The position numbers and the translations under genes were made by a program. A DNA stretch of 64,000 bases from an uncultured Gemmatimonadales bacterium (GTDB lineage Bacteria; Gemmatimonadota; Gemmatimonadetes; Gemmatimonadales; GWC2-71-9). Under the pieces are notes generated by a model, which worked only from the letters and a program-made list of their open reading frames with translations, was not told the DNA's origin and ran no database searches. Positions 53,511 through 62,904 of the stretch are shown in pieces. Within the stretch, counting starts at the first letter, position 1. Every line of letters begins with the position of its first letter. The stretch is from positions 64,001 to 128,000 of the forward strand of contig CAVYSW010000006.1 of NCBI GenBank assembly GCA_963771275.1, given 5' to 3'.

Positions 53511-53944
53511 ATGACACCGCGCTCGATCGTCTTCCGATCCCTCGGAGCCGCCCTCGCCGTCGCACTGACGGCCGCCGCGGTAGCCGCGCAGCATGCCGGT
53601 CACCAGGAACAGGCGCCGGGTGCGCCCACCAAGGCCGTGGCCGTTCTCGCTCCAACGGCGGGCAACACGGTCCATGGGGTGGTGACGTTCATGGCCGTGG
53701 ACGGCGGCGTGCGGATCACGGCTCAGGTCGAGGGCCTTCCGGCCGGTGGCCATGGGTTCCACATCCACGAGTACGAGGAACGGCATCGTACGACCGGACG
53801 GACCCGCAGGTGAGCCTGACCGGCGCGCACGGCATCATTGGCCGAGCTGTGATCGTCCATGCCCAGCCCGACGACTTCACGACCCAGCCCACCGGGGGCG
53901 CGGGCGCGCGGCTGGCCTGCGGCGTCATCGGGATCGCGAAGTAG
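53511..53944 (+). pseudogene. sodC: Cu/Zn superoxide dismutase with internal deletion and frameshift at ~53775
   Basis: Signal peptide..HGFHIHEY, then a jump to another frame: [36 protein letters not shown]. The GDC..GGHFNP..H..HxGDLGN segment is missing. Confidence 0.8.
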
Positions 53945-54038: not shown

Positions 54039-54584
54039 TCAATGGCCACCGAAGAAGAGCGCAACCCCGAGCTGACCCCCGATCGTGAACGTGCCGGGGA
54101 AATGCGAGCTCTCAAACGAATACTGGACGGGGAACTCCGTGCGGAGCGAAACGCGATCGGCGAGCCGCGTCTTGGCGCCGAATGACGCCCCGATGCCGAA
54201 TTGGACGTCGCTGTCACCCACGCCTGACGCCCCGGCGTTTACGAACCTGAGGGCGCCGAACGGAGCGAAGAACATGCCACGCCGTACACCCTCAAAGGAG
54301 ATGGAGACGCCGAGGCCGAGGCCCGCAACGAGGAGATTGGCACCGTCTACGCGAGCAAAGGCAATCGAGACCGATGGCTCGATGGCCAAGCGCTCACGTA
54401 TCGGGATACCCAGGTAGATGCCGCTACCAGCTGTCTGAAAGGAGAAGACGTGCGTTCCGCCGCCCGACGCATACGAGAACATGCCGACCGCCGCGCCAAC
54501 TTCCATCGCTCGACCCTGCGCGTACGCGAACCCAAGCGGAAGCACGAAACCCGTGAATGCGAATACCACGATCATCTTGCGCAT
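54039..54584 (-). CDS. Small outer-membrane beta-barrel protein
   Basis: Signal peptide MRKMIVVFAF..AYAQ; amphipathic strands; C-terminal GVALFF. Confidence 0.7.
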   Translation of the reverse strand: MRKMIVVFAFTGFVLPLGFAYAQGRAMEVGAAVGMFSYASGGGTHVFSFQTAGSGIYLGIPIRERLAIEPSVSIAFARVDGANLLVAGLGLGVSISFEGVRRGMFFAPFGALRFVNAGASGVGDSDVQFGIGASFGAKTRLADRVSLRTEFPVQYSFESSHFPGTFTIGGQLGVALFFGGH

Positions 54585-54765
54585 GCCCGCCCCCGGTTGG
54601 TTGGAGTGCGACCGTTGTCTGACCGGCGGCGCGCCCCCCTGCCCACCCGGGAACGCGACACGCGGAGGCATGAATTCGGATTCGCGGTCTGAAACCGCCG
54701 TGAAGGGGGGATGAAGCGCGGTTGACGGCGCGCGGGAAGGTCAAGTGGCCGTGGGTATTGGCCTG

Positions 54766-54808
54766 ATGGAGCGGACGGGATTCGAACCCGTGACCCCCTG
54801 CTTGCAAA
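54766..54808 (-). repeat. att site: duplicated 3' half of tRNA-Ala
   Basis: ATGGAGCGGACGGGATTCGAACCCGTGACCCCCTGCTTGCAAA, identical to 62831-62873. Confidence 0.95.
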
Positions 54809-54919
54809 TTAGAGGCTCCGGGACTCCCAGCGATTCCCCGCCGTTCCCGATTCTCCCGTTTCCCCTCTGAAAACGCGCTCTTGCCGGTTCCTAGACGTTC
54901 CCCTAGATTCCTTCCAAGT

Positions 54920-54954
54920 GGTTACCCGGCGGCTACCCCAGGTCCGGGTAACCC
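54920..54954. promoter_or_regulatory. Putative integrase arm-type sites (left)
   Basis: GGTTACCCGGCGGCTACCC plus an inverted GGGTAACCC; matches 62763-62781. Confidence 0.65.
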
Positions 54955-54974
54955 AACCCGTCAGGGGGTGCCGG

Positions 54975-56291
54975 ATGCGCGCCAAGCTCACCAAGAGGAT
55001 CGTGGACAGCCTACGCTGCCCCAGGACGGGCGATCGGTTCGCCTGGGATACCGAGTTGCGGGGGTTCGGCATCCGGGTCAAGCCGAGCGGCGCGAAGAGC
55101 TTCTGTCTCGCCTACTACGCGCCCGGGCTCCACAAGGTGCGTCGCCGGCTCACGCTCGGCGCGTATGGCGTGCTCACCGTAGAGCAGGCCCGCGCCAAGG
55201 CGACCGAGATCCTGGGGCGCGTGCTGAAGGGAGAGGATCCTGCTCGAGAGCGTGTCGAAGCCCGCCGCGCCGCGGAGCAGGAGACGGTCGAGAAGCTGTT
55301 CAACGAGTACCTGGACGACGGCCGCGCCCGGTTCAAGTTGCGAACGGTCGAGGCGTTTGAGAGCGTCGGCCGCTTGTACATCATCCCGAACCTGGGCACG
55401 CTCCCCGTGTCGCGCGTCACCGTGCGCGACGTGGCCCGCTTGCACCACGAGTTGCGCGACAAGCCGGTGCAAGCGAACCGCGTCGTGTCCGTCTTGAAGG
55501 CGTTCTACTACTGGCTCGAACGGCGCGCGCTGTTCACCGGGACGAATCCCGCGCGCCACGTCGAGCCCTATCCAGAGAACCCGCGCGAGCGGTTCCTGTC
55601 CGTCGAGGAGATGGGGAAGATCGGCCAGGCGCTCCGCGTCGCCGAAACGCTCGGCCTGCCCCCGGCACCGGAGCACAAGCGGCCACCTGGCACATCGAAG
55701 CGGGAGCGCAACGCGGGGATGTTTGCCCCGCGGCTCGAAGCCGCGAACCCCGTCACCGTGGCGGCGCTCCGCTTCCTGCTGTTCACCGGCTGGCGCGAGC
55801 AAGAGGCGTTGACGCTCCAGTGGAGCGACGTCAACCTGAAGGCGGGAATCGCCACGCTCGCCGACACGAAATCCGGGAAGAGCGTGCGGGCGCTCGGCGC
55901 TCCGGCGCTCGAGCTGCTGGCGGCGCAACCACGGGTGCAGGGCTCGCCCTATGTGTTCCCGGGCCGCGATCCGTCGAAGCCACTCGAGGGGGTGCGCCGC
56001 CTCTGGCACGCTGTCCGCTGTGAAGCGGGACTCGAAGGCGTCCGGCTCCATGACCTACGGCATTCCGTCGCGTCGTTCGCGGGTGGGCGTGGGTACTCTC
56101 TCTTCCTCATCGGGAAGCTCTTGGGCCACAAGACGGCGCGCTCGACGGAGCGGTACGCGCACCTGGCCGACGATGCGCGCAAGCTGATGGCCGACGACGT
56201 GAGCACTGTGATTAAAGAGGCGTTGGAAGCATCGGACCTGGAGACGGCGCATCTCGCCGCGCCCGTCATGTCGCTCCGCGGACGGCGCTAG
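54975..56291 (+). CDS. Tyrosine integrase with Arm-DNA-binding N-terminal domain
   Basis: WDTELRGFGIRV..G.KSF; TGWREQE; DTKSG; RLHDLRHS; LLGH..TERYAH. Confidence 0.95.
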   Translation: MRAKLTKRIVDSLRCPRTGDRFAWDTELRGFGIRVKPSGAKSFCLAYYAPGLHKVRRRLTLGAYGVLTVEQARAKATEILGRVLKGEDPARERVEARRAAEQETVEKLFNEYLDDGRARFKLRTVEAFESVGRLYIIPNLGTLPVSRVTVRDVARLHHELRDKPVQANRVVSVLKAFYYWLERRALFTGTNPARHVEPYPENPRERFLSVEEMGKIGQALRVAETLGLPPAPEHKRPPGTSKRERNAGMFAPRLEAANPVTVAALRFLLFTGWREQEALTLQWSDVNLKAGIATLADTKSGKSVRALGAPALELLAAQPRVQGSPYVFPGRDPSKPLEGVRRLWHAVRCEAGLEGVRLHDLRHSVASFAGGRGYSLFLIGKLLGHKTARSTERYAHLADDARKLMADDVSTVIKEALEASDLETAHLAAPVMSLRGRR

Positions 56292-56816
56292 GTGCCTGAC
56301 ATCGCGGAGCTCGGCTTGCGCCTCAAAGATGGGAAGGTTGTCGGCACCACTCGCCCGTGGGTCCACACGCTGCACAACATCCAATGCCGCATCGACAAGG
56401 GCGAGACGCCAACGCACGCCGAGATCCTCGCCGCCCTCGCGGCGCATCCCGACGTCGGGCCGGCCATCGCCAATCTGCTCACCAAGGGCAAGAGGAAACG
56501 GGGTCCGCGTGCGAACCCCGACGCCAAGTGGGCGCGCCATCTTTCGCGCGTGTGGGCGGTGAGCCTTCGCGAAGCGGAGTTGCGGCGGCAAGGCGAGCGG
56601 TGTGCGGCCTCGCGTGCCCAGAAAGAGGTGGCGAAGGAACTTGGGATCGCTCTCGCCACACTGAAAGATGCTGTGCGGCGCGCGCCCCTGGGGGCACCGG
56701 CGGGGATCTGCACCATGCACCGCGCGATGCGGGACTACGGCCGAGCTGCTGGCCTTCCTTCGCGCGCACCCCGACGTCGGGCCGGCTCTCACCGACCTGC
56801 CAAGGGGGGTAAGTAA
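56292..56816 (+). CDS. Hypothetical protein with possible HTH and a degenerate internal duplication
   Basis: Abuts the integrase stop; AQKEVAKELGIALATLKDAV is HTH-like; the C-terminus is probably out of frame. Confidence 0.45.
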   Translation: MPDIAELGLRLKDGKVVGTTRPWVHTLHNIQCRIDKGETPTHAEILAALAAHPDVGPAIANLLTKGKRKRGPRANPDAKWARHLSRVWAVSLREAELRRQGERCAASRAQKEVAKELGIALATLKDAVRRAPLGAPAGICTMHRAMRDYGRAAGLPSRAPRRRAGSHRPAKGGK

Positions 56817-56876
56817 AACCGACGAAATAGCTACCCGCATTACGCGATGCCCGCGGCCGTTCCTACCTTGTCCCCC

Positions 56877-57104
56877 ATGACGATCCCCACTGATACGCTA
56901 CTCCTCACCGCGCACCAAGCCAGCGAGCTGCTCGGCCTGGCCGCCTCGACGCTCGCGAAGATGCGCCTCCGCGGTGACGGCCCCAGGTACGTGAAGCTCG
57001 GCGTCTCCGTGCGCTACCCGGTCAGCGCGCTCGAGGCGTACGTCGCCAGCGCGCCACTCCGTCGCTCAACCAGTGAGTACCTCCCCCGGCACCGAGAGGC
57101 ATGA
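56877..57104 (+). CDS. Excisionase/AlpA-like HTH protein
   Basis: LLTAHQASELLGLAASTLAKMRLRGDGPRYVKLGVSVRY. Confidence 0.85.
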   Translation: MTIPTDTLLLTAHQASELLGLAASTLAKMRLRGDGPRYVKLGVSVRYPVSALEAYVASAPLRRSTSEYLPRHREA

Positions 57105-57334
57105 CCATGACGACACCCTGGCCCCAACAACCACCCCCGGCGCCCTCGGTGCTCGACCGCTCCGTCCAGGCGACCTTCGACGCCAAAATGGCAGAAATCC
57201 AAGAAGCAGAAAACCGGCTACGGCAATCCGATGACTGGTTCGACTTGCCGACGCGGGAGCGGCAGCGGCTCCTCGGCCCGCTCGAGGCGGAACGCGCAGA
57301 GCTGCGGCGCGTCATGAAGGACTTCGGGTTGTGA
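57101..57334 (+). CDS. Hypothetical protein
   Basis: ATGA overlap with the Xis-like gene; GAGG RBS; helical 77 aa. Confidence 0.65.
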   Translation: MTMTTPWPQQPPPAPSVLDRSVQATFDAKMAEIQEAENRLRQSDDWFDLPTRERQRLLGPLEAERAELRRVMKDFGL

Positions 57335-57672
57335 AGGGGCGCGTCGATCGTTTGTGGCGGGACCTGCGCTGCCGGGAAGCCGTGAAGCTGCGTGCCCAGG
57401 GCCGCGCCGTCGCCAGCGGCTTCGACCTGGCGCGTCCTGACAGCATCGCCGCCCTCGCCGCCCTCGATCCGATCGGCCGGCAGGCATGTCTGGCCGCGCT
57501 CAAAGTGGAGCAGCTCGAGCAGCTCGCCGCGGGCGACGACTTCCGCGCCGCGTACGGGGTCGGGCTCGATGACCTGAGTGATGGGGAGCTCAAGCGGCTC
57601 GCCGCCGGCGAAGACCCCCACACCGTGCTCAGGGGCGGTGAGCGTGGACGTGGTGAGCAACAGTCACCGTGA
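57331..57672 (+). CDS. Hypothetical protein
   Basis: GTGA overlap; two L..L...EL..LAAGD/E-type repeats. Confidence 0.6.
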   Translation: MKGRVDRLWRDLRCREAVKLRAQGRAVASGFDLARPDSIAALAALDPIGRQACLAALKVEQLEQLAAGDDFRAAYGVGLDDLSDGELKRLAAGEDPHTVLRGGERGRGEQQSP

Positions 57673-58048
57673 CGGTCAGCGTCGATGCGAGGCGCGCACC
57701 GCCACCGGGAAGCCCTGCCGTATGCCTCCACTCGCCGGCCGGTCATTCTGTTTCAACCACGATCCGGAGCGGGCGCGCGATCGTGCGACGGCTCGCCGTC
57801 GTGGGGGGAAGCAGTCGCGCCGCGATGCGCAAAAGGCCTCGACGCCGGCGGCCGTGGGCACCGTCGAGCAGCTGCAGGGGATCCTCGGCAAGGCGATCGC
57901 GGACATTCAGGTGCTCGAGAACAGCTGCAGCCGCGGCCGTACGCTCGCCTCGCTGGTGCACACCGGCCTCGCGGCGCTCGAGGTCGGGGAGCTCGAGCAG
58001 CGGTTGCGCGTGCTCGAGGAGCGGTTCGGCGCGGCGCGGAGCTCGTGA
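57650..58048 (+). CDS. Cys3His zinc-finger protein (mobile-element type, possible small-terminase-like DNA binder)
   Basis: RCEARTATGKPCRMPPLAGRSFCFNHDP..RRRGG; C-terminal ELEQRLRVLEE coiled coil. Confidence 0.65.
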   Translation: MVSNSHRDGQRRCEARTATGKPCRMPPLAGRSFCFNHDPERARDRATARRRGGKQSRRDAQKASTPAAVGTVEQLQGILGKAIADIQVLENSCSRGRTLASLVHTGLAALEVGELEQRLRVLEERFGAARSS

Positions 58049-58319
58049 GATGATCGTGATGTTCGAGGTGAACGTGATGTCCAGGGGTGGCGCGGTGCAC
58101 GCAAGTGCTCGGGTAGAGCAGGCCCGGCGGGGATGATCCCCACCCCGGCCGCGCGTTCCCTCGGGTCGGGCTGATAGAAGAACAACGCGCCCCGGGCGTG
58201 CAACCCGGAGGCGCGGACCTACTAGCGGCGCGAAAGGGGCGCCACTCGATGCAGAATCTAGCGCGACCATATGACACGCGGCAAGCCGGGAACCGAGCCC
58301 GCCGCACGCGGGAAGGCAC

Positions 58320-58361
58320 GCTGTAGGTGTTCGTGCAGCTGTAGGTGTTGATGTAGGTGAT
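58320..58361 (+). repeat. Three direct repeats of (GC/GA)TGTAGGTG(T/A)T
   Basis: GCTGTAGGTGTT at 58320 and 58338; GATGTAGGTGAT at 58350. Confidence 0.6.
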
Positions 58362-58690
58362 GCACGGCAGTTCTGACACCGTTCTGCCGGTCCCGGGAGC
58401 GAGCCCGGGCGAATCCCAACGGGATGAAGGCAAAGGGGACCGAACTAATCCGGGCTCTGTGGAGACAACCCGGGCCGCCCGAATCCCCTCTGCTGGTTTG
58501 AGGCCGCGTTGAAGGGCCTCTAATGGCTCCCCGATGGGGGCCGCGAACCCGACCCGTTCGCGCGATCATCGGCGCCACCTTCAACCTACTCGCTTTGATG
58601 GCCCCTCGCTGTACAGGGGGTAGTCCGAAGGTCCTGGGCGGCGTACTCGGGTCACAAGGATGGACGCACTAGCCGTAACGGGGGGCCGTC

Positions 58691-58960
58691 GTGAGTGAGG
58701 GTGTTAGCCGTAACGCGAGGGTGCTGGTCGTGGCGCAGTGCATCGCGTGTCACGCGCCCCGCTGGCTTGCGCTCGACGGACGGGGGCACACCAAACCCCT
58801 CTTGGTGCATTGCGCCGGGTGTCACCGCGACGTGCCCCTACCATCGGTCCCGCGTCCGGCACGCCGGCGTCGGGCGACACGGCGCGACGTGGTGTTCTGC
58901 TCGTCGGCGTGCCGTCAAGCGCTTTCCGGGAACGTCACCGCGCTTGAGGAGAAGAAATGA
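58691..58960 (+). CDS. Small zinc-finger protein
   Basis: CIAC, CAGC, RRDVVFCSSACRQ; stop overlaps the next ATG. Confidence 0.55.
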   Translation: MSEGVSRNARVLVVAQCIACHAPRWLALDGRGHTKPLLVHCAGCHRDVPLPSVPRPARRRRATRRDVVFCSSACRQALSGNVTALEEKK

Positions 58961-59517
58961 CGCAGCAAGTCATCAACATCGGCACGATCCCCGGCGACCA
59001 CACGGGCACCAAAGGGCTCCGGACCGCCGGCGACATGATCAACGACAACTTCGGCGAGCTGTACGCGGCGGTTGACGCCCTGAGTGGCTTTGACCTCGAG
59101 GGCCTGTCGGATGCGGTGGACGTGCTCACCGCGACCGTGGCGCCCTTCACGACGGGCGCAGACGTGGCCGTAGATCGTGCGGTGCGCTGCGGCTTGGCAA
59201 CGGTGACCGTGGCGAGCGGCGACGTGGCCAAGAGCATCGCCCTGACCGCCGCGAACGTCACGCGCGTCCTCCTGGGGAACACCAATCCCGTCGAACTGAC
59301 ACTAACCGGCCCGGTCGCCGGCGCGTGCTACAGCTTGGCGCTCTATGCGAGTGGCGGCGCGCGGTCGTTTACCTGGGGCACGTCCGTTACCTGGGTCGGC
59401 GACGAACCGGACGGCACGCTCGCGCCGGGTAACGCGCAGATCGTGACCTTGCTTGCCATGTCGGGCGGTATCCTACTCGGCTGGGCGTCCGCAGAGGGCG
59501 CCTACGGGGCCATCTGA
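58957..59517 (+). CDS. Short phage tail-fibre/baseplate-like protein
   Basis: N-terminus QQVINIGTIPGDHTG..LRTAGDMINDNFGELY resembles the T4 gp9/gp10-type attachment motif. C-terminus LTLTGPVAGACYSL..GARSFTW..VTW is typical of fibre C-domains. GAGGAG RBS. Confidence 0.65.
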   Translation: MTQQVINIGTIPGDHTGTKGLRTAGDMINDNFGELYAAVDALSGFDLEGLSDAVDVLTATVAPFTTGADVAVDRAVRCGLATVTVASGDVAKSIALTAANVTRVLLGNTNPVELTLTGPVAGACYSLALYASGGARSFTWGTSVTWVGDEPDGTLAPGNAQIVTLLAMSGGILLGWASAEGAYGAI

Positions 59518-59972
59518 TGCCAGCGTACAACCGGCTGCTCGCGGCGCTCGAGTTGGTCGGTGGCGGCGACCCGTGTTCCGGCGCGCCCTCGATCGTGTCG
59601 GTGACGGCCAGCACGGCGAGCAACCCGTGCGCCTCACATGGCGTCACGCATACCGGCGAAGTGGATCTGTCGGACGTGCTGAGGGGCGGGTTGAAACTGC
59701 AATGGGAAGTCTACACCGACGAGGATAGCGGCTGGCGAACACCGAGCGGTGGCGCCTACACGAGCCCAGGCGGGACCGTGAGCGTCAACACGGACCTCGG
59801 GCTCGGTGGCTATGACACCGCGGGGACGGACGGCGGGCCGCTGTCCATTGGCACCCCGACCGCGAAGTTTCGCTGTCGCATCGTGCGGAGTGATGGGACC
59901 GCGTGCGGCGCGGGGACGTGGACCGAGAGCAGTTACTCAACGGATGGCGCGGACATGTACGAATGCGCGTAG
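59517..59972 (+). CDS. Gly/Ser/Thr-rich beta protein, possible fibre-tip adhesin
   Basis: TGATG coupling to the fibre-like gene; short RLLAA..GGG N-terminus; Ig/Fn3-like strands. Confidence 0.55.
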   Translation: MPAYNRLLAALELVGGGDPCSGAPSIVSVTASTASNPCASHGVTHTGEVDLSDVLRGGLKLQWEVYTDEDSGWRTPSGGAYTSPGGTVSVNTDLGLGGYDTAGTDGGPLSIGTPTAKFRCRIVRSDGTACGAGTWTESSYSTDGADMYECA

Positions 59973-60240
59973 ACCTCGGACGGCTCGGCCGCCGCACCAG
60001 GATGCCCTAGGAAGGGCCGAGCTAGGCCGTGGTGGGACGTGCTCGACGTGGTGACCACGCAGACCCAGATGGCGACCCCACCCATCTGACACGGCGTTCG
60101 GTAGTCGCACGATGCGACTACCGCCCGCGCCGTGATTGAAGCTTCGGCGCTCGCTGAGCGCGTTGCCGCCCTCGAAGCGGCGACCGCGTGGCCTCGGGCG
60201 CACTAACGGGTGTCACATCGGGAGTGCATATTTCCCCGTG

Positions 60241-60382
60241 GTCCAACCACCGCGTTGAACCGGGCTGGCCCGGCGGCTGGTGGAATGCTCACTCAATGGG
60301 GCAGGTTTCGTTGAGGACGTCACTTGACACACGTTGCTGCTAGCGGAGCCGTGGGCCGGCGCAAACGCGCGGGCCGTTAGAC
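60241..60382 (+). other. Integron attC-like recombination site
   Basis: GTCCAAC (RYYYAAC)...GTTAGAC (GTTRRRY) enclosing a long imperfect palindrome; next ATG is 16 bp after the site. Confidence 0.6.
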
Positions 60383-60398
60383 GGTCACCCTCTGTCCG

Positions 60399-61520
60399 AT
60401 GAACGATGCCCTGCTCAGGGTCGCGCTGACGGATTCGCTATCAGACCCCAACTCGCACGCTAATCCACAGTCGCCCATTCGTCATGCGCTAGCAACGGAC
60501 CCCGAGCTAACGCAATTCCAAGACCAGTTTCACTTCCAGGTGTCAGGCTGGGCTCGGGCGACACATCAGACGCTTGCTGGTTGGCTCATTGAGCGAGCGA
60601 GAGCCACCTCAGCTGCCACGGCTGTTTCTGACCTGGCTCGGTACGTCGCCACTGACACAATCACCTGTACACACGTGATGACGCTCGGCGGCGTGCGAGT
60701 TGACCGCGCCGTCCAAGTCGGTCCGGGTATCCAACTCATCTCGTTCGAGGGGATTAGTACGTTCTTCTGGGCAAGTCGCATCGCCGGCTTGTATCGGACC
60801 TTCCATAAGAACTACCAGCCGACCGCCGCAATCCTCCAGACCGCAGCCTACCGGAAAGCGGTCCGCCCACCGGGCGCACAAATGGACTTCCCACCAAACA
60901 TGTACCAATCGCTTGAGGACGTTAGGCGATGCGTCACAGCTATCGGCCCGTCGTGCCCTGTTTGGCTGGGCACTTGGACGGAGCTTGACGAGTGGCTCCC
61001 AACCTATGGGAGCGGCGCGGCGATTCCCAACCCCTTCGAGACGGGTGGCTTCCCACGAAAAACCCGCGAAGGTGACTGGGAGCAACTGCCGTCACTTTAC
61101 TCAGCATGGTGCCGTCTGCCCGTGCGTGAACGAGAACATCTGCGCGTTCCTCTGGACCGCCTAAACCGCGCACAACGGAATCTCCCCATCGTGGACGTCG
61201 CAATCGAGCTTGGGGTGGCGGTGGACGCCTTGTTCCTCGCGGAGCGCGAGGCAGACCGTGGCGAGCAAACCCTCACGCTGCGCTTGCGCGCATCGCGGTT
61301 CCTCGCCCAAGAGGTCCCGGAGCAGCGTATGCTCGCGAAACGCTTCGGCACGCTGTATCGAGCCCGGTCCATGGCGGTGCACGCAGGCCGTCTCGATGAC
61401 GCGATTGACGGCCTAAACACCCGGCAATTGCTCGACCAGGGCTGCGACCTTGCCGCGACCGCACTACGCAGAATCATCCTCGAAGGCCCACCGGATTGGA
61501 CTGAGCTTCTCTACACCTAG
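60399..61520 (+). CDS. HEPN-domain protein (ApeA-like C-terminal HEPN)
   Basis: ELGVAVDALF..LRLRASRFL..LYRARSMAVHAG (RxxxxH); lower GC than flanks. Confidence 0.8.
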   Translation: MNDALLRVALTDSLSDPNSHANPQSPIRHALATDPELTQFQDQFHFQVSGWARATHQTLAGWLIERARATSAATAVSDLARYVATDTITCTHVMTLGGVRVDRAVQVGPGIQLISFEGISTFFWASRIAGLYRTFHKNYQPTAAILQTAAYRKAVRPPGAQMDFPPNMYQSLEDVRRCVTAIGPSCPVWLGTWTELDEWLPTYGSGAAIPNPFETGGFPRKTREGDWEQLPSLYSAWCRLPVREREHLRVPLDRLNRAQRNLPIVDVAIELGVAVDALFLAEREADRGEQTLTLRLRASRFLAQEVPEQRMLAKRFGTLYRARSMAVHAGRLDDAIDGLNTRQLLDQGCDLAATALRRIILEGPPDWTELLYT

Positions 61521-61557
61521 GGGACCACACGGGGACGTTGCTGCGGAGCCTCTGACC

Positions 61558-61938
61558 TCAACAACTCCCCGCGGCTAGCAGCACGCTGCGACTGGTTCCC
61601 GCGCCCATGTCAGCGTCCGCAGGGAGACTCATGCAGGTCTGCGGTTCCTCCCGGTGCACACGCACCTCGAGCGGGGGTGGCGCCGCGGTTCGGCGGGCCC
61701 CCGCGCGGGGTTCTGGGATCTCAGACCCCCACTTCAGCTTGGCCGTGATGTACTCGTCGAACACCTCGTCGAGATGTTGCATTGCCTCTACGTCACTGGA
61801 GCCATCTGTCTTGCAGCCGGAAAGTTCCTCGATCCAGGCTAGCCAATACCGGCCACCCGGCTCATCCGGCTGCTCGACAGGCTCACACCGCCGAGTGTAC
61901 GGGAGTGCTTGGTAGTACGGCAAGTTCTTGTCAGTCAT
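61558..61938 (-). CDS. hicB: HicB-family antitoxin
   Basis: YYQALPY..YWLAWIEELSGCKTDG..EAM..L..YI..WGSEIPEP. Confidence 0.8.
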   Translation of the reverse strand: MTDKNLPYYQALPYTRRCEPVEQPDEPGGRYWLAWIEELSGCKTDGSSDVEAMQHLDEVFDEYITAKLKWGSEIPEPRAGARRTAAPPPLEVRVHREEPQTCMSLPADADMGAGTSRSVLLAAGSC

Positions 61939-61943
61939 GGTCT

Positions 61944-62192
61944 TTATGATTGGCGTCTCGTAAGCTCGTCCACCAGTTTCACGGCATCCTCTGATACCCA
62001 GCTGCGTAGGACATTGTGCCGCGGAACGCCCATGGTCAAGTCCGGATGATCAGGGTGTTCACAGATTGTATGCTTACCTCCCTCCTCAACGCGAAAGCCG
62101 AAGCCCCGGAGCATCGAGCAGACCTCGTCATGGCCCCAGCCGTGCTTAGTCGCCCGCATGCGCACAAGCAGCCTCTCTGCGCTCCGGCTCAT
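61944..62192 (-). CDS. hicA: HicA-family toxin
   Basis: LRGFGFRVEEGGKH..HPDHP..VPRH. Confidence 0.8.
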   Translation of the reverse strand: MSRSAERLLVRMRATKHGWGHDEVCSMLRGFGFRVEEGGKHTICEHPDHPDLTMGVPRHNVLRSWVSEDAVKLVDELTRRQS

Positions 62193-62193
62193 T

Positions 62194-62616
62194 TCAGTGC
62201 GTCAGCCGAGCGTCGCGCGCCTGGACAGCATAGAGAGGGACGCTTCCTACGTGCCTTCCATCGATTTTCACGGCGAAGTCGTAGGCTCCCGCGTGGGGTA
62301 GCGTGATGTTGGGAAGCTCCATGACGAATTCCCAGGCGAGTGGGGCGTCTGGGTACACTCGACCCTCAGGCTTCAGATCAAACGCGATCTTCTGGGACTT
62401 GCCACACACCTGTCCGTCAGCGTCGATCAGTTCAATAACCAAGTGATGTGCACCGGCTTCGAGTCGCGAGCCCTCCACCCGCACGAGAATCGACAGACTC
62501 TTGTGAATGACTGGAAAGGCGGGAGCGGCAATCAAGTCGAAGATCCCGATGACGATCTTCTTGTTGGCCTGCCCTGGGGTGATGTGGTCGGCAATGAAGC
62601 CGTAGCGGAGATACAT
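62194..62616 (-). CDS. DUF6941-like small beta-sandwich protein
   Basis: FIADH..KKIVIGIFD..FP..LPHAGAYDFAVKIDG..GSVPL; GGAG RBS; directly upstream of hicA. Confidence 0.65.
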   Translation of the reverse strand: MYLRYGFIADHITPGQANKKIVIGIFDLIAAPAFPVIHKSLSILVRVEGSRLEAGAHHLVIELIDADGQVCGKSQKIAFDLKPEGRVYPDAPLAWEFVMELPNITLPHAGAYDFAVKIDGRHVGSVPLYAVQARDARLTH

Positions 62617-62762
62617 GTTGGACTCCCGTCACCTGCGTTTCCCGACCGACGCCGTGTAGTCGTTTGTCACAGCCATTGGCACAGCGCATTGGTGTCGCGC
62701 CTCGCCAACGGCTCGGTGCGCCCCGAGCTGGCGATTTCCTGACCCCCGAAACCCTGCCGGTC

Positions 62763-62781
62763 GGTTACCCGGCGGTTACCC
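62763..62781. promoter_or_regulatory. Putative integrase arm-type sites (right)
   Basis: GGTTACCCGGCGGTTACCC; 18/19 match to 54920-54938. Confidence 0.65.
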
Positions 62782-62831
62782 TGGCTCCAGACCTCCGCGC
62801 CTGAAATCGGCTAAGTGCTTGCGGGACAACA

Positions 62832-62904
62832 TGGAGCGGACGGGATTCGAACCCGTGACCCCCTGCTTGCAAAGCAGGTGCTCTCCCAACTGAGCTACCG
62901 CCCC
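62832..62904 (-). tRNA. tRNA-Ala(TGC), integration target
   Basis: GGGGCGG/CCGCTCC acceptor stem with G3:U70; CCTGC-TTTGCAA-GCAGG anticodon arm; GGTTCGAATCC. Confidence 0.96.

Follow-up and report, generated by a model that had tools for sequence, protein, structure and literature searches.

The window, the whole 64,000-nucleotide stretch of Gemmatimonadales DNA that was analysed, contains at positions 54766..62873 an intact 8-kb mobile element inserted in a tRNA gene. Its ends are two repeats (54766-54808 and 62831-62873) that are identical over exactly 43 bp, are spaced 8,065 bp apart and represent the 3' part of tRNA-Ala(TGC) (62832-62904, minus strand), so the repeat-bounded 8,065-bp unit of the original prediction was recovered and could be assigned to a tRNA site that is empty in genomes of the same genus. 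The features of the element are the following:

54766..54808, minus strand: att copy at the left end (duplicated 3' part of tRNA-Ala), a 43-bp exact repeat present as a single copy at the empty site of L035 and L036
54920..54938, no strand assigned: putative integrase arm-type site, 18/19 identity to its partner at 62763-62781
54975..56291, plus strand: intact tyrosine integrase (PF00589, 2e-18; PF13356; phrog_1, 6.5e-53) with catalytic motifs present
56292..56816, plus strand: 174-aa ORF with a weak C-terminal HTH (HTH_10, E 0.052), part of it duplicated at 56740-56800
56847..57104, plus strand: Xis/HTH_17 excisionase-like protein (PF12728, 6.5e-8; phrog_66)
57107..57334, plus strand: 75-aa orphan ORF coupled to Xis, no family match
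57331..57672, plus strand: 113-aa orphan ORF, coupled, with an internal repeat and a good codon score, no family match
57650..58048, plus strand: CCCH Zn-finger plus helical protein, from gene context most likely a small terminase (TerS)
58049..58690, no strand assigned: 640-bp gap with no credible ORF, possibly a packaging site or a deletion scar
58691..58960, plus strand: 89-aa Zn-finger ORF with weak zinc-finger matches only (zf-FCS, E 0.004) and a low codon score
58957..59517, plus strand: 186-aa shaftless gp9/gp10-like protein, adaptor or spike knob (phrog_677, 8e-6; fold matches)
59517..59972, plus strand: orphan of 151 aa, predicted to be all-beta and coupled to 58957, for which it is a candidate tip partner
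60241..60382, plus strand: attC-like repeat just before the HEPN gene, with integron-type core motifs at its bounds
60399..61520, plus strand: candidate anti-phage RNase with a HEPN domain (tblastn match at 7e-19 with a plasmid protein annotated as HEPN)
61558..61938, minus strand: HicB-like antitoxin (PF21748, 6e-4)
61944..62192, minus strand: HicA-like toxin (PF07927, 3e-4; phrog_353)
62194..62616, minus strand: DUF6941 protein (PF22091, 5e-26)
62831..62873, minus strand: att copy at the right end, inside tRNA-Ala(TGC), a 43-bp exact repeat
62832..62904, minus strand: intact tRNA-Ala(TGC), the target gene (ARAGORN; Rfam RF00005, 73 bits)

The attB site is empty in two genomes of the same genus: in L036 crp lies ~190 bp from tRNA-Ala, and in L035 the tRNA gene immediately follows sodC. 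The 43 exact tRNA bases, together with this empty site in relatives, rule out a chance repeat or an artefact, and a relaxase-mobilised island was likewise ruled out, no relaxase having been found in the PHROG scan of the element's frames. Just within each end lies one copy of a 19-bp motif (54920-54938 and 62763-62781; 18/19 identical), a pair that fits the arm sites expected for an integrase. The integrase has the catalytic motifs of tyrosine integrases in place, and together with Xis it would move the 8,065-bp unit into and out of tRNA-Ala. In promoter, terminator and Rfam scans the tRNA and its att copy were the only signals to exceed chance. Two sequencing runs are on record, with small shares (0.07 and 0.06), and no RNA run is listed.

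The integrase, the Xis-like HTH (HTH_17, 6.5e-8), the small coupled ORFs and the two Zn-finger ORFs were all found again, and the statement that capsid, portal, large terminase (TerL), primase and relaxase are not recognisable also held: a six-frame PHROG scan, covering 72 of the 73 stop-to-stop frames of at least 70 aa with the omitted integrase frame scanned separately, found none of them, and no tape measure protein (TMP) was matched in six frames. Neither the element nor its gaps contained remnants of replication genes or TerL when searched by tblastn with the relatives' replicases and with the relatives' genes, and six frames of the element held no phage-gene remnants. Among 1,973 genes called across the fetched loci there was no homologue of ORF 57107. 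Signs of decay are not apparent in the element: the ORFs are open, and 58957 has the highest codon score of them all.

The right-hand part carries the HEPN and HicAB genes listed in the original prediction, which had overlooked the DUF6941 gene beside them. The HEPN-like protein, a candidate ApeA-like one, gave no match in Pfam but has one RxxxxH motif (residue 323) and resembles a plasmid protein annotated as HEPN (27% identity over 95%); it probably provides anti-phage defence. PADLOC returned no match. The HicB and HicA matches fall below the Pfam cut-offs, and the pair would stabilise the element; the triplet of DUF6941 and HicAB is also present in L191. The attC-like repeat was also considered as the mark of a possible integron cassette carrying the HEPN gene. 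Homologues of the repeat (72-78%) are repeated in L192, L195 and L199, and its fold energy (-25.2, against -25.0 +/- 3.3 for shuffles) indicates a bottom-strand hairpin no better than that of shuffled sequences.

The original prediction named no packaging gene in the element, which needs correcting in that the Zn-finger protein at 57650 is most likely a small terminase: of the 30 relative loci that could be tested, 17 have TerL, from three profile families, as the following ORF. In that tally L020 was excluded (no profile match), two loci reach contig edges, and two of 23 further places were left out. TerL is not next in the other 13 testable loci, and it was matched in none of 39 loci that are mostly from Chloroflexota. 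The protein itself gave weak matches to HGG_STG and phrog_3678 and Atlas neighbours at 0.96 that are 50-64% viral among recorded members. It matched no TerS profile or structure, no informative PDB entry and nothing in 50,697 phage records; as a single-protein query it retrieved no IMG/VR locus, and the terms HGGxSTG and DUF5763 were not found in the literature searched. The gap that follows (58049-58690) occupies the slot where relatives have TerL and matches neither the relatives' genes nor PHROGs. With no TerL beside it, a TerS has to be compatible with one from elsewhere, and the TerS-like protein would recruit the TerL of a helper phage or a sibling satellite to the element DNA, with recognition perhaps located in the gap. 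TerL, capsid and portal searches for a helper phage in the element's own genome (96.7% complete) were empty.

Relatives retrieved via the integrase and via the Zn-finger alike are compact, tRNA-integrated elements. Twelve of the 20 fetched loci of integrase relatives are att-bounded elements of 3.5-16.8 kb, and nine of these twelve carry a primase, helicase or rep gene. Overall a family of capsid-less, tRNA-integrated elements of 3.5-18.5 kb recurs in Gemmatimonadales-type hosts; most members have a replicase, many have TerL and some have tape-measure or other virion genes, whereas the element of the window has no replicase, TerL or tape measure. Scattered virion genes occur in L016, L072, L077, L081, L114, L176 and L180. 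The family plan would run from integrase and Xis/HTH through replicase, TerS and often TerL to assorted virion genes and defence or toxin-antitoxin cargo. Among elements at this tRNA-Ala(TGC) site the nearest relative is L072, whose corresponding slots are filled by a Prim-Pol, TerL, a ParE-like toxin and two small virion-like genes. Because its relatives usually carry a primase and TerL, their absence from our element looks like a derived state.

These relatives bear on whether the element is a heavily deleted temperate prophage in which the head and tail operons are gone and a TerS gene and a pair of distal tail genes are what is left. In favour of this, Xis, TerS, the gap and the distal structural genes stand in the order of phage late genes, the element has the 640-bp empty gap and a partial duplication in the region of the 174-aa ORF (56418/56740, a 61-nt repeat at 75%), and small remnants exist among the relatives (L080, L083 and L183). 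However, the examined att-bounded relatives are all at most 18.5 kb, and major capsid and portal profiles, which can miss remote capsids, gave no match in the 97, 96 and 73 relatives' sequences scanned; the immediate ancestor therefore looks like a satellite and not a phage. With phage-gene remnants absent as well, we regard prophage decay, already raised as an alternative in the original prediction, as weakened and now very unlikely, and the satellite-like character that it proposed is upheld.

The pair 58957-59517 consists of two intact, translationally coupled genes, and the stop of the 58691 ORF overlaps the start of 58957. In its predicted model 58957 combines the N-terminal motif of T4 gp9/gp10 with an XD-type beta-sandwich. 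Its alignment profile matches T4 gp10 at 1e-12, Foldseek places the model at E 5e-4 to gp10 and 3e-3 to gp9, and VIA aligns it with TSP4 and with a gp9-type chain of KP1 at Z scores of 7.2-7.3 (rmsd 3.0-3.9; 93-102 residues aligned); these fold scores are middling, and the same fold also occurs in CpaA and StcE. The motif and sandwich are shared with T4 gp9/gp10, the XD modules of CBA120 TSP4 and the Pa223 spike knob, but 58957 has just 186 aa and no shaft, enzymatic domain or further domain. On this modelling it is not a fibre but a gp9/gp10-like XD protein with no shaft, an adaptor or the knob of a spike, most likely a short trimeric one on which 59517 would dock. For 59517 itself the single-sequence model (pLDDT 40.5) is too poor for a fold search and the best Atlas neighbour, at 0.81, is a lead only; searches of metagenomes and of longer proteins detected no homologue or family, and it has no similarity to the virion-like protein of L072. 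One metagenome match, an unrelated 301-aa ORF sharing a single eight-residue word, was discarded. Of the two virion-like genes proposed originally, 58957 is thus backed by a tail family (phrog_677) and its gp9/gp10 likeness, while for 59517 no homologue was detected.

Variant contigs of 7,863 bp and 5,470 bp exist. Outside the window the pair was found on just one near-identical variant contig, where the 58957 allele has diverged through conservative changes; long parts of this contig are identical to the element, so that both may stem from one population. Searches of independent lineages did not recover the pair. The 58957 profile matched in three of 400 genomes of the phylum, never in a compact element; among 910 candidates of similar length 58957 retrieved just itself, in IMG/VR it gave one weak match, and neither its best homologue nor an alignment of three C-domain sequences matched anything there. 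A DNA search of 300 family genomes with the inner 6.5 kb gave eight with short matches only (hicAB, the attC-like repeat, <100 bp). The compact tRNA-integrated arrangement thus recurs among the relatives but the pair does not, 58957 has the fold of a shaftless knob or adaptor, and the lack of primase and TerL looks derived; the results therefore do not support a miniature tail-fibre module as the hallmark of a class. The pair would rather be an accessory of its own lineage, not family-defining, and probably consists of structural genes that the element took from a phage into the cargo slot behind terS.

What such a capture would do for the element was considered in two ways. As the original prediction suggested, the element could be a functional, streamlined satellite that equips the baseplate or capsid of helper-built particles with an appendage of its own, the 58957 adaptor with the 59517 tip, and so alters adsorption or host range. 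The intact, coupled genes agree with this, as do the variant contig with both genes and a diverged 58957 allele, and the small virion-like pair that L072 holds in the same slot, although unrelated to 58957-59517. In CBA120 TSP4 and T4 gp10, XD domains serve as docking points for other spikes (PMC8825819), the 58957 fold is that of the knob of the Pa223 capsid spike, and PLEs make chimeric tails (PMC12987554). Against this stand the rarity of the 58957 profile and its absence from compact elements, a partner gene with no homologue or confident fold, a variant contig that may belong to the same population, and the lack of a replicase for amplifying the element, and we consider this role unlikely. 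A still less probable alternative is that 58957 works against phages together with the HEPN defence gene, as a decoy that imitates gp9/gp10 without a shaft and so blocks infecting T4-like or jumbo phages from assembling their baseplates or fibres. It does retain the N-terminal motif and XD domain with no domain beyond and neighbours HEPN and HicAB cargo, and satellite-encoded tail-assembly inhibitors are known, namely Tai (PMC11364771) and Rta (PMC12987554). However, its shortness is no sign of a decoy because natural phage proteins of this architecture are common (matches of 150-220 aa), PADLOC offered no support, and 58957 is coupled to a second gene as a structural pair would be. Intact ORFs and conservative changes in the variant fit a selected function as well as passive cargo.

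Known satellites share several of these traits. With the PICIs (SaPIs and Gram-negative PICIs; PMC10085698) the element shares a size of ~8-10 kb, a chromosomal location with an integrase at an att site, an HTH regulator/Xis, accessory cargo after terS and TerS-type packaging redirection, its own TerS being putative and assigned from context; of the regulation module it has HTH_17/Xis and a weak HTH ORF, with no AlpA or Stl match. In contrast to PICIs it has no primase-replicase and no capsid-remodelling (capsid morphogenesis) gene, its TerS candidate is of a Zn-finger type that matches no TerS profile, and it carries a tail-family gene (phrog_677) of a kind forbidden by the PICI model in that paper. 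Unlike cf-PICIs it has, in the six-frame scan, no capsid, portal, TerL or head-tail connectors of its own. PLEs are likewise capsid-less satellites that encode some tail parts (PMC12987554): PLE11 of Vibrio cholerae encodes TMP, a tail chaperone and a baseplate hub but relies on borrowed fibres, and TMP and tail assembly chaperone are conserved across PLEs. Our element has none of the three; what it carries is an adaptor of gp9/gp10 type. The EPIPs found in Mycolicibacterium (PMC12822802) are ~11-kb satellites with TerS and tail-related genes, and relatives of our element carry TMP-like genes; EPIPs differ in having a serine integrase, TMP, head-tail adaptor and stopper, against a tyrosine integrase and none of these proteins here. 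MiniFlayer and MulchRoom (PMC10690885) also have no recognisable primase but have their own capsids, MiniFlayer having no lysogeny module and its own tail fibre, whereas our element is integrated and capsid-less. PICMIs (PMC10803314) are minimal satellites with defence cargo and no capsid remodelling, but they lie next to fis in Vibrionaceae and encode replication, while the element lies at tRNA-Ala with a TerS-like gene and no replicase. Satellites with their own tail parts (PLE, EPIP and MiniFlayer; PMC12987554, PMC12822802, PMC10690885) and primase-less satellites (MiniFlayer and MulchRoom; PMC10690885) are already published. A capsid-less satellite supplying an adsorption appendage was not found in the open-access main texts searched.

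We therefore favour, with moderate confidence, a reduced satellite that hitchhikes in trans and bears captured virion genes as cargo, within the capsid-less, tRNA-integrated family of Gemmatimonadales-type hosts. Having no replicase or TerL of its own, it could spread only by hitchhiking, and its replication, if any, would be borrowed. It is doubtful that the larger scheme also applies, in which a capsid-less, replicase-less satellite has its packaging directed by a new Zn-finger TerS and puts its own adaptor-plus-tip appendage on helper virions, each family member supplying a different virion part (tape measure, neck, cement or adaptor).

Even on the conservative reading, a Zn-finger family with the genomic behaviour of an unannotated TerS is a usable lead, and a second is the satellite family itself, which is capsid-less and common in a phylum whose phages have been little studied; our element is a reduced member, and L072, L169, L170, L173, L176 and L180 are more complete and better suited for study. 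Published tail-contributing satellites are few (PLE, EPIP and MiniFlayer), and if particles did incorporate 58957-59517, a satellite that makes no virion could still determine which hosts it reaches.

The element is real and intact. As originally noted, it lies between exact 43-bp repeats and is predicted to be excisable; both repeats, spaced 8,065 bp apart, reproduce the 3' part of a tRNA-Ala(TGC) gene, and the site is unoccupied in two genomes of the same genus (L035 and L036). Proteins from this genus are assigned by their source to Gemmatimonadales, the order in which the host is thus provisionally placed. Its features, with genes named by their start, include:

54766-54808, left 43-bp repeat
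57650, CCCH Zn-finger protein
58957, 186-aa gp9/gp10-like protein
59517, 151-aa orphan
60399, HEPN protein
62831-62873, right 43-bp repeat
62832-62904, tRNA-Ala(TGC)

The integrase gene encodes a full-length protein whose catalytic motifs are in place, an Xis-type HTH gene follows downstream, and a 19-bp motif occurs near each end of the element, just internal; Int and Xis would excise it. The element is single-copy in its own genome (96.7% complete), where the integrase is also the only one of its kind and where searches for TerL, capsid and portal matched nothing. A PHROG scan covering the element's stop-to-stop frames of at least 70 aa (72 out of 73) matched only Xis, the Zn-finger protein, 58957, HicA and DUF6941. 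Just beyond the left repeat is an outer-membrane beta-barrel-like gene (54039-54671, minus strand), missing at the equivalent position in L035 and L036 and possibly the leftover of an earlier island. The gene at 53511-53944, which we take to be Cu/Zn superoxide dismutase-like, is split through an internal deletion, with L035 as reference, and has a fuller copy on contig C10 of the same genome.

Relatives of the integrase (E <= 1e-40) were present in 28 of 400 genomes of the order, and 12 of the 20 loci fetched are bounded by att-type repeats, with sizes of 3.5-16.8 kb. A replication gene (primase, helicase or rep) is present in nine of these 12, namely L071, L072, L077, L081, L084, L085, L087, L088 and L089; none was found in L076, and L080 and L083 (3.5 and 4.2 kb) were examined by gene caller only. 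The Zn-finger loci are likewise units of 4-18.5 kb, anchored at tRNA or tmRNA genes. Major capsid and portal families had no match among the 97, 96 and 73 sequences scanned, which include one phage-contig control ORF and five collection proteins and in which remote capsids could escape detection. Scattered virion genes do occur in the relatives: L077, L081 and L176 have minor tail or neck genes, L114 has a cement-like gene, and L072 encodes a virion structural protein. That the element is a deleted prophage is very unlikely; its relatives, rather than always being embedded in full prophages, are compact units without a major capsid or portal match.

The closest relative, an 11.8-kb element (L072:2070-13911), occupies the same tRNA-Ala(TGC) site and has an integrase 64% identical to ours, interrupted by a stop. 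Its order is Xis, Prim-Pol, a probable helicase, a small gene, TerL, a coiled-coil gene, two small virion-like genes unrelated to the 58957-59517 pair, and a ParE-like toxin. Since our element follows this plan without the replicase and TerL, their absence looks like a derived state on gene order; replication would be borrowed or absent.

Homologues of 57650 occupy 11 places in the class set, spread over 10 of its 300 genomes, and 23 places in the order set, where 22 of 400 genomes have one. We examined all 11 class places, 21 of the 23 order places and L114, leaving out of the tally L020, which has no profile match, and two loci at contig ends (n=30). The large terminase is the next ORF after the Zn-finger gene in 17 of these 30 loci (class set 5/10, order set 12/19; L114 is not among them), the partners belonging to three profile families (phrog_2/5902, 7579 and 38), although related loci are not independent. 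This context, strong inside this clade, suggests that 57650 is probably a small terminase (TerS), but it matches no TerS profile or PDB entry, and tblastn found no TerL in 39 further Zn-finger loci, mostly from Chloroflexota. Packaging would then occur in trans, through the element's TerS with a foreign TerL. In L093-L126 (Limnocylindrales and other Chloroflexota) the Zn-finger family occurs in many small modules, with six copies in one genome (G644, locus L124), and is followed, where TerL would be, by a conserved uncharacterised protein of ~270 aa; in the 39 further loci the gene upstream is often one read by eye as a ParB/methylase gene. Within the same host family, tRNA-Ala(TGC) is also the site of a 4.2-kb remnant (L183:3200-7525) that keeps the C-terminal half of a Zn-finger family protein.

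The N-terminus of 58957 carries the T4 gp9/gp10 motif, and its C-terminal 100 residues, modelled at pLDDT 73-87, align with the ends of a 598-aa (48% identity) and a 968-aa protein. The fold resembles XD domains (T4/KP1 gp9-gp10, CBA120 TSP4), the Pa223 capsid spike knob, and CpaA and StcE domains, with middling scores (Z 6.4-8.5), and the model matches 360 viral models at E <= 0.001. Since XD domains are reported to mediate spike-to-spike docking (PMC8825819) and the Pa223 knob is described at the top of a head spike (bioRxiv 2025.06.11.659172), 58957 is, on its predicted structure, an adaptor or knob without a shaft and could by analogy sit at the baseplate or head; calling it a tail fibre was an overstatement. 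Overlapping stop and start codons tie it to 59517, an orphan for which homologue searches found none, whose all-beta model is unreliable (pLDDT 40.5; best Atlas neighbour 0.81) and which may dock on 58957. That 58957 is instead a decoy against assembly is very unlikely, even though tail assembly is reported to be blocked by Tai, a satellite-encoded protein type (PMC11364771).

The 58957 profile matched in 3 of 400 phylum genomes (a genuine phage contig with a capsid gene, a short phage-like contig and a long host-like gene), none of them a compact element, and when the inner DNA of the element was searched against 300 family genomes, 8 had matches, all of them short. Protein clusters indicate that two variants exist. 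The first, of 7,863 bp and judged to be one contig from the equal length and shared source of the cluster members, would hold the integrase, the genes from Xis through the Zn-finger, the two virion-like genes, HicA and DUF6941. Long stretches are identical to our element, but at its start 58957 has 80% identity, the changes being conservative, and several of the contig's frameshifts resemble read errors. It may derive from the same population and is weak support for recurrence. The other, of 5,470 bp, has the integrase (92%), Xis (93%) and Zn-finger (66%), and no cluster members for the pair were found. Uniqueness together with many pseudogenes had been named as grounds for rejecting the idea; the arrangement is near-unique, but by codon scores not rich in pseudogenes.

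The element is probably a phage satellite, of a kind that differs from the named types. PICIs are closest in mode of working, but it has no primase or capsid-remodelling gene and carries a tail-family gene, which the PICI model bars (PMC10085698). Nor does it belong to cf-PICI, PLE, EPIP, MiniFlayer or PICMI. The original assumption of tails that are always borrowed is outdated, since published reports describe chimeric tails incorporating PLE-encoded TMP and hub (PMC12987554), TMP encoded by EPIP genomes (PMC12822802) and a MiniFlayer with its own fibre and capsid and no primase (PMC10690885). A literature search, mostly at record level, found no description of this Gemmatimonadales family, nor of any satellite that lacks a capsid and yet provides an adsorption appendage. 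That this satellite adds an appendage to helper virions is unlikely, the idea being based on a single lineage and a single orphan gene. On balance it is best read, with moderate confidence, as a reduced hitchhiking satellite carrying captured cargo, to which the pair would belong.

HicAB would maintain the element and the HEPN protein would serve in defence, its HEPN label coming from 27% identity across 95% of its length to an annotated plasmid HEPN protein and a single RxxxxH motif. An attC-like repeat (60241-60382) precedes the HEPN gene. Its homologues are repeated in L192, L195 and L199, and contig C7 of the element's own genome has a weak one; folding gives no support for a hairpin. The DUF6941-HicA-HicB triplet moves as a module, since it also occurs outside this element in another genome of the family (L191:1301-2391). 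An 18-bp tandem repeat at 58320-58355, in the gap after the Zn-finger gene, reads as an alternating-residue linker resembling those of phage replication initiators, a likeness for which homology searches gave no support.

Long tape-measure-like genes are also seen in eight capsid-less tRNA-integrated elements, profile-backed in L016, L077 and L180 and read by eye in L081, L114, L167, L173 and L176, with neck, minor-tail or cement genes in some and TerL in most. These are better objects of study than our copy, and the element family and the probable new TerS type stand on firmer ground than the idea of receptor donation.
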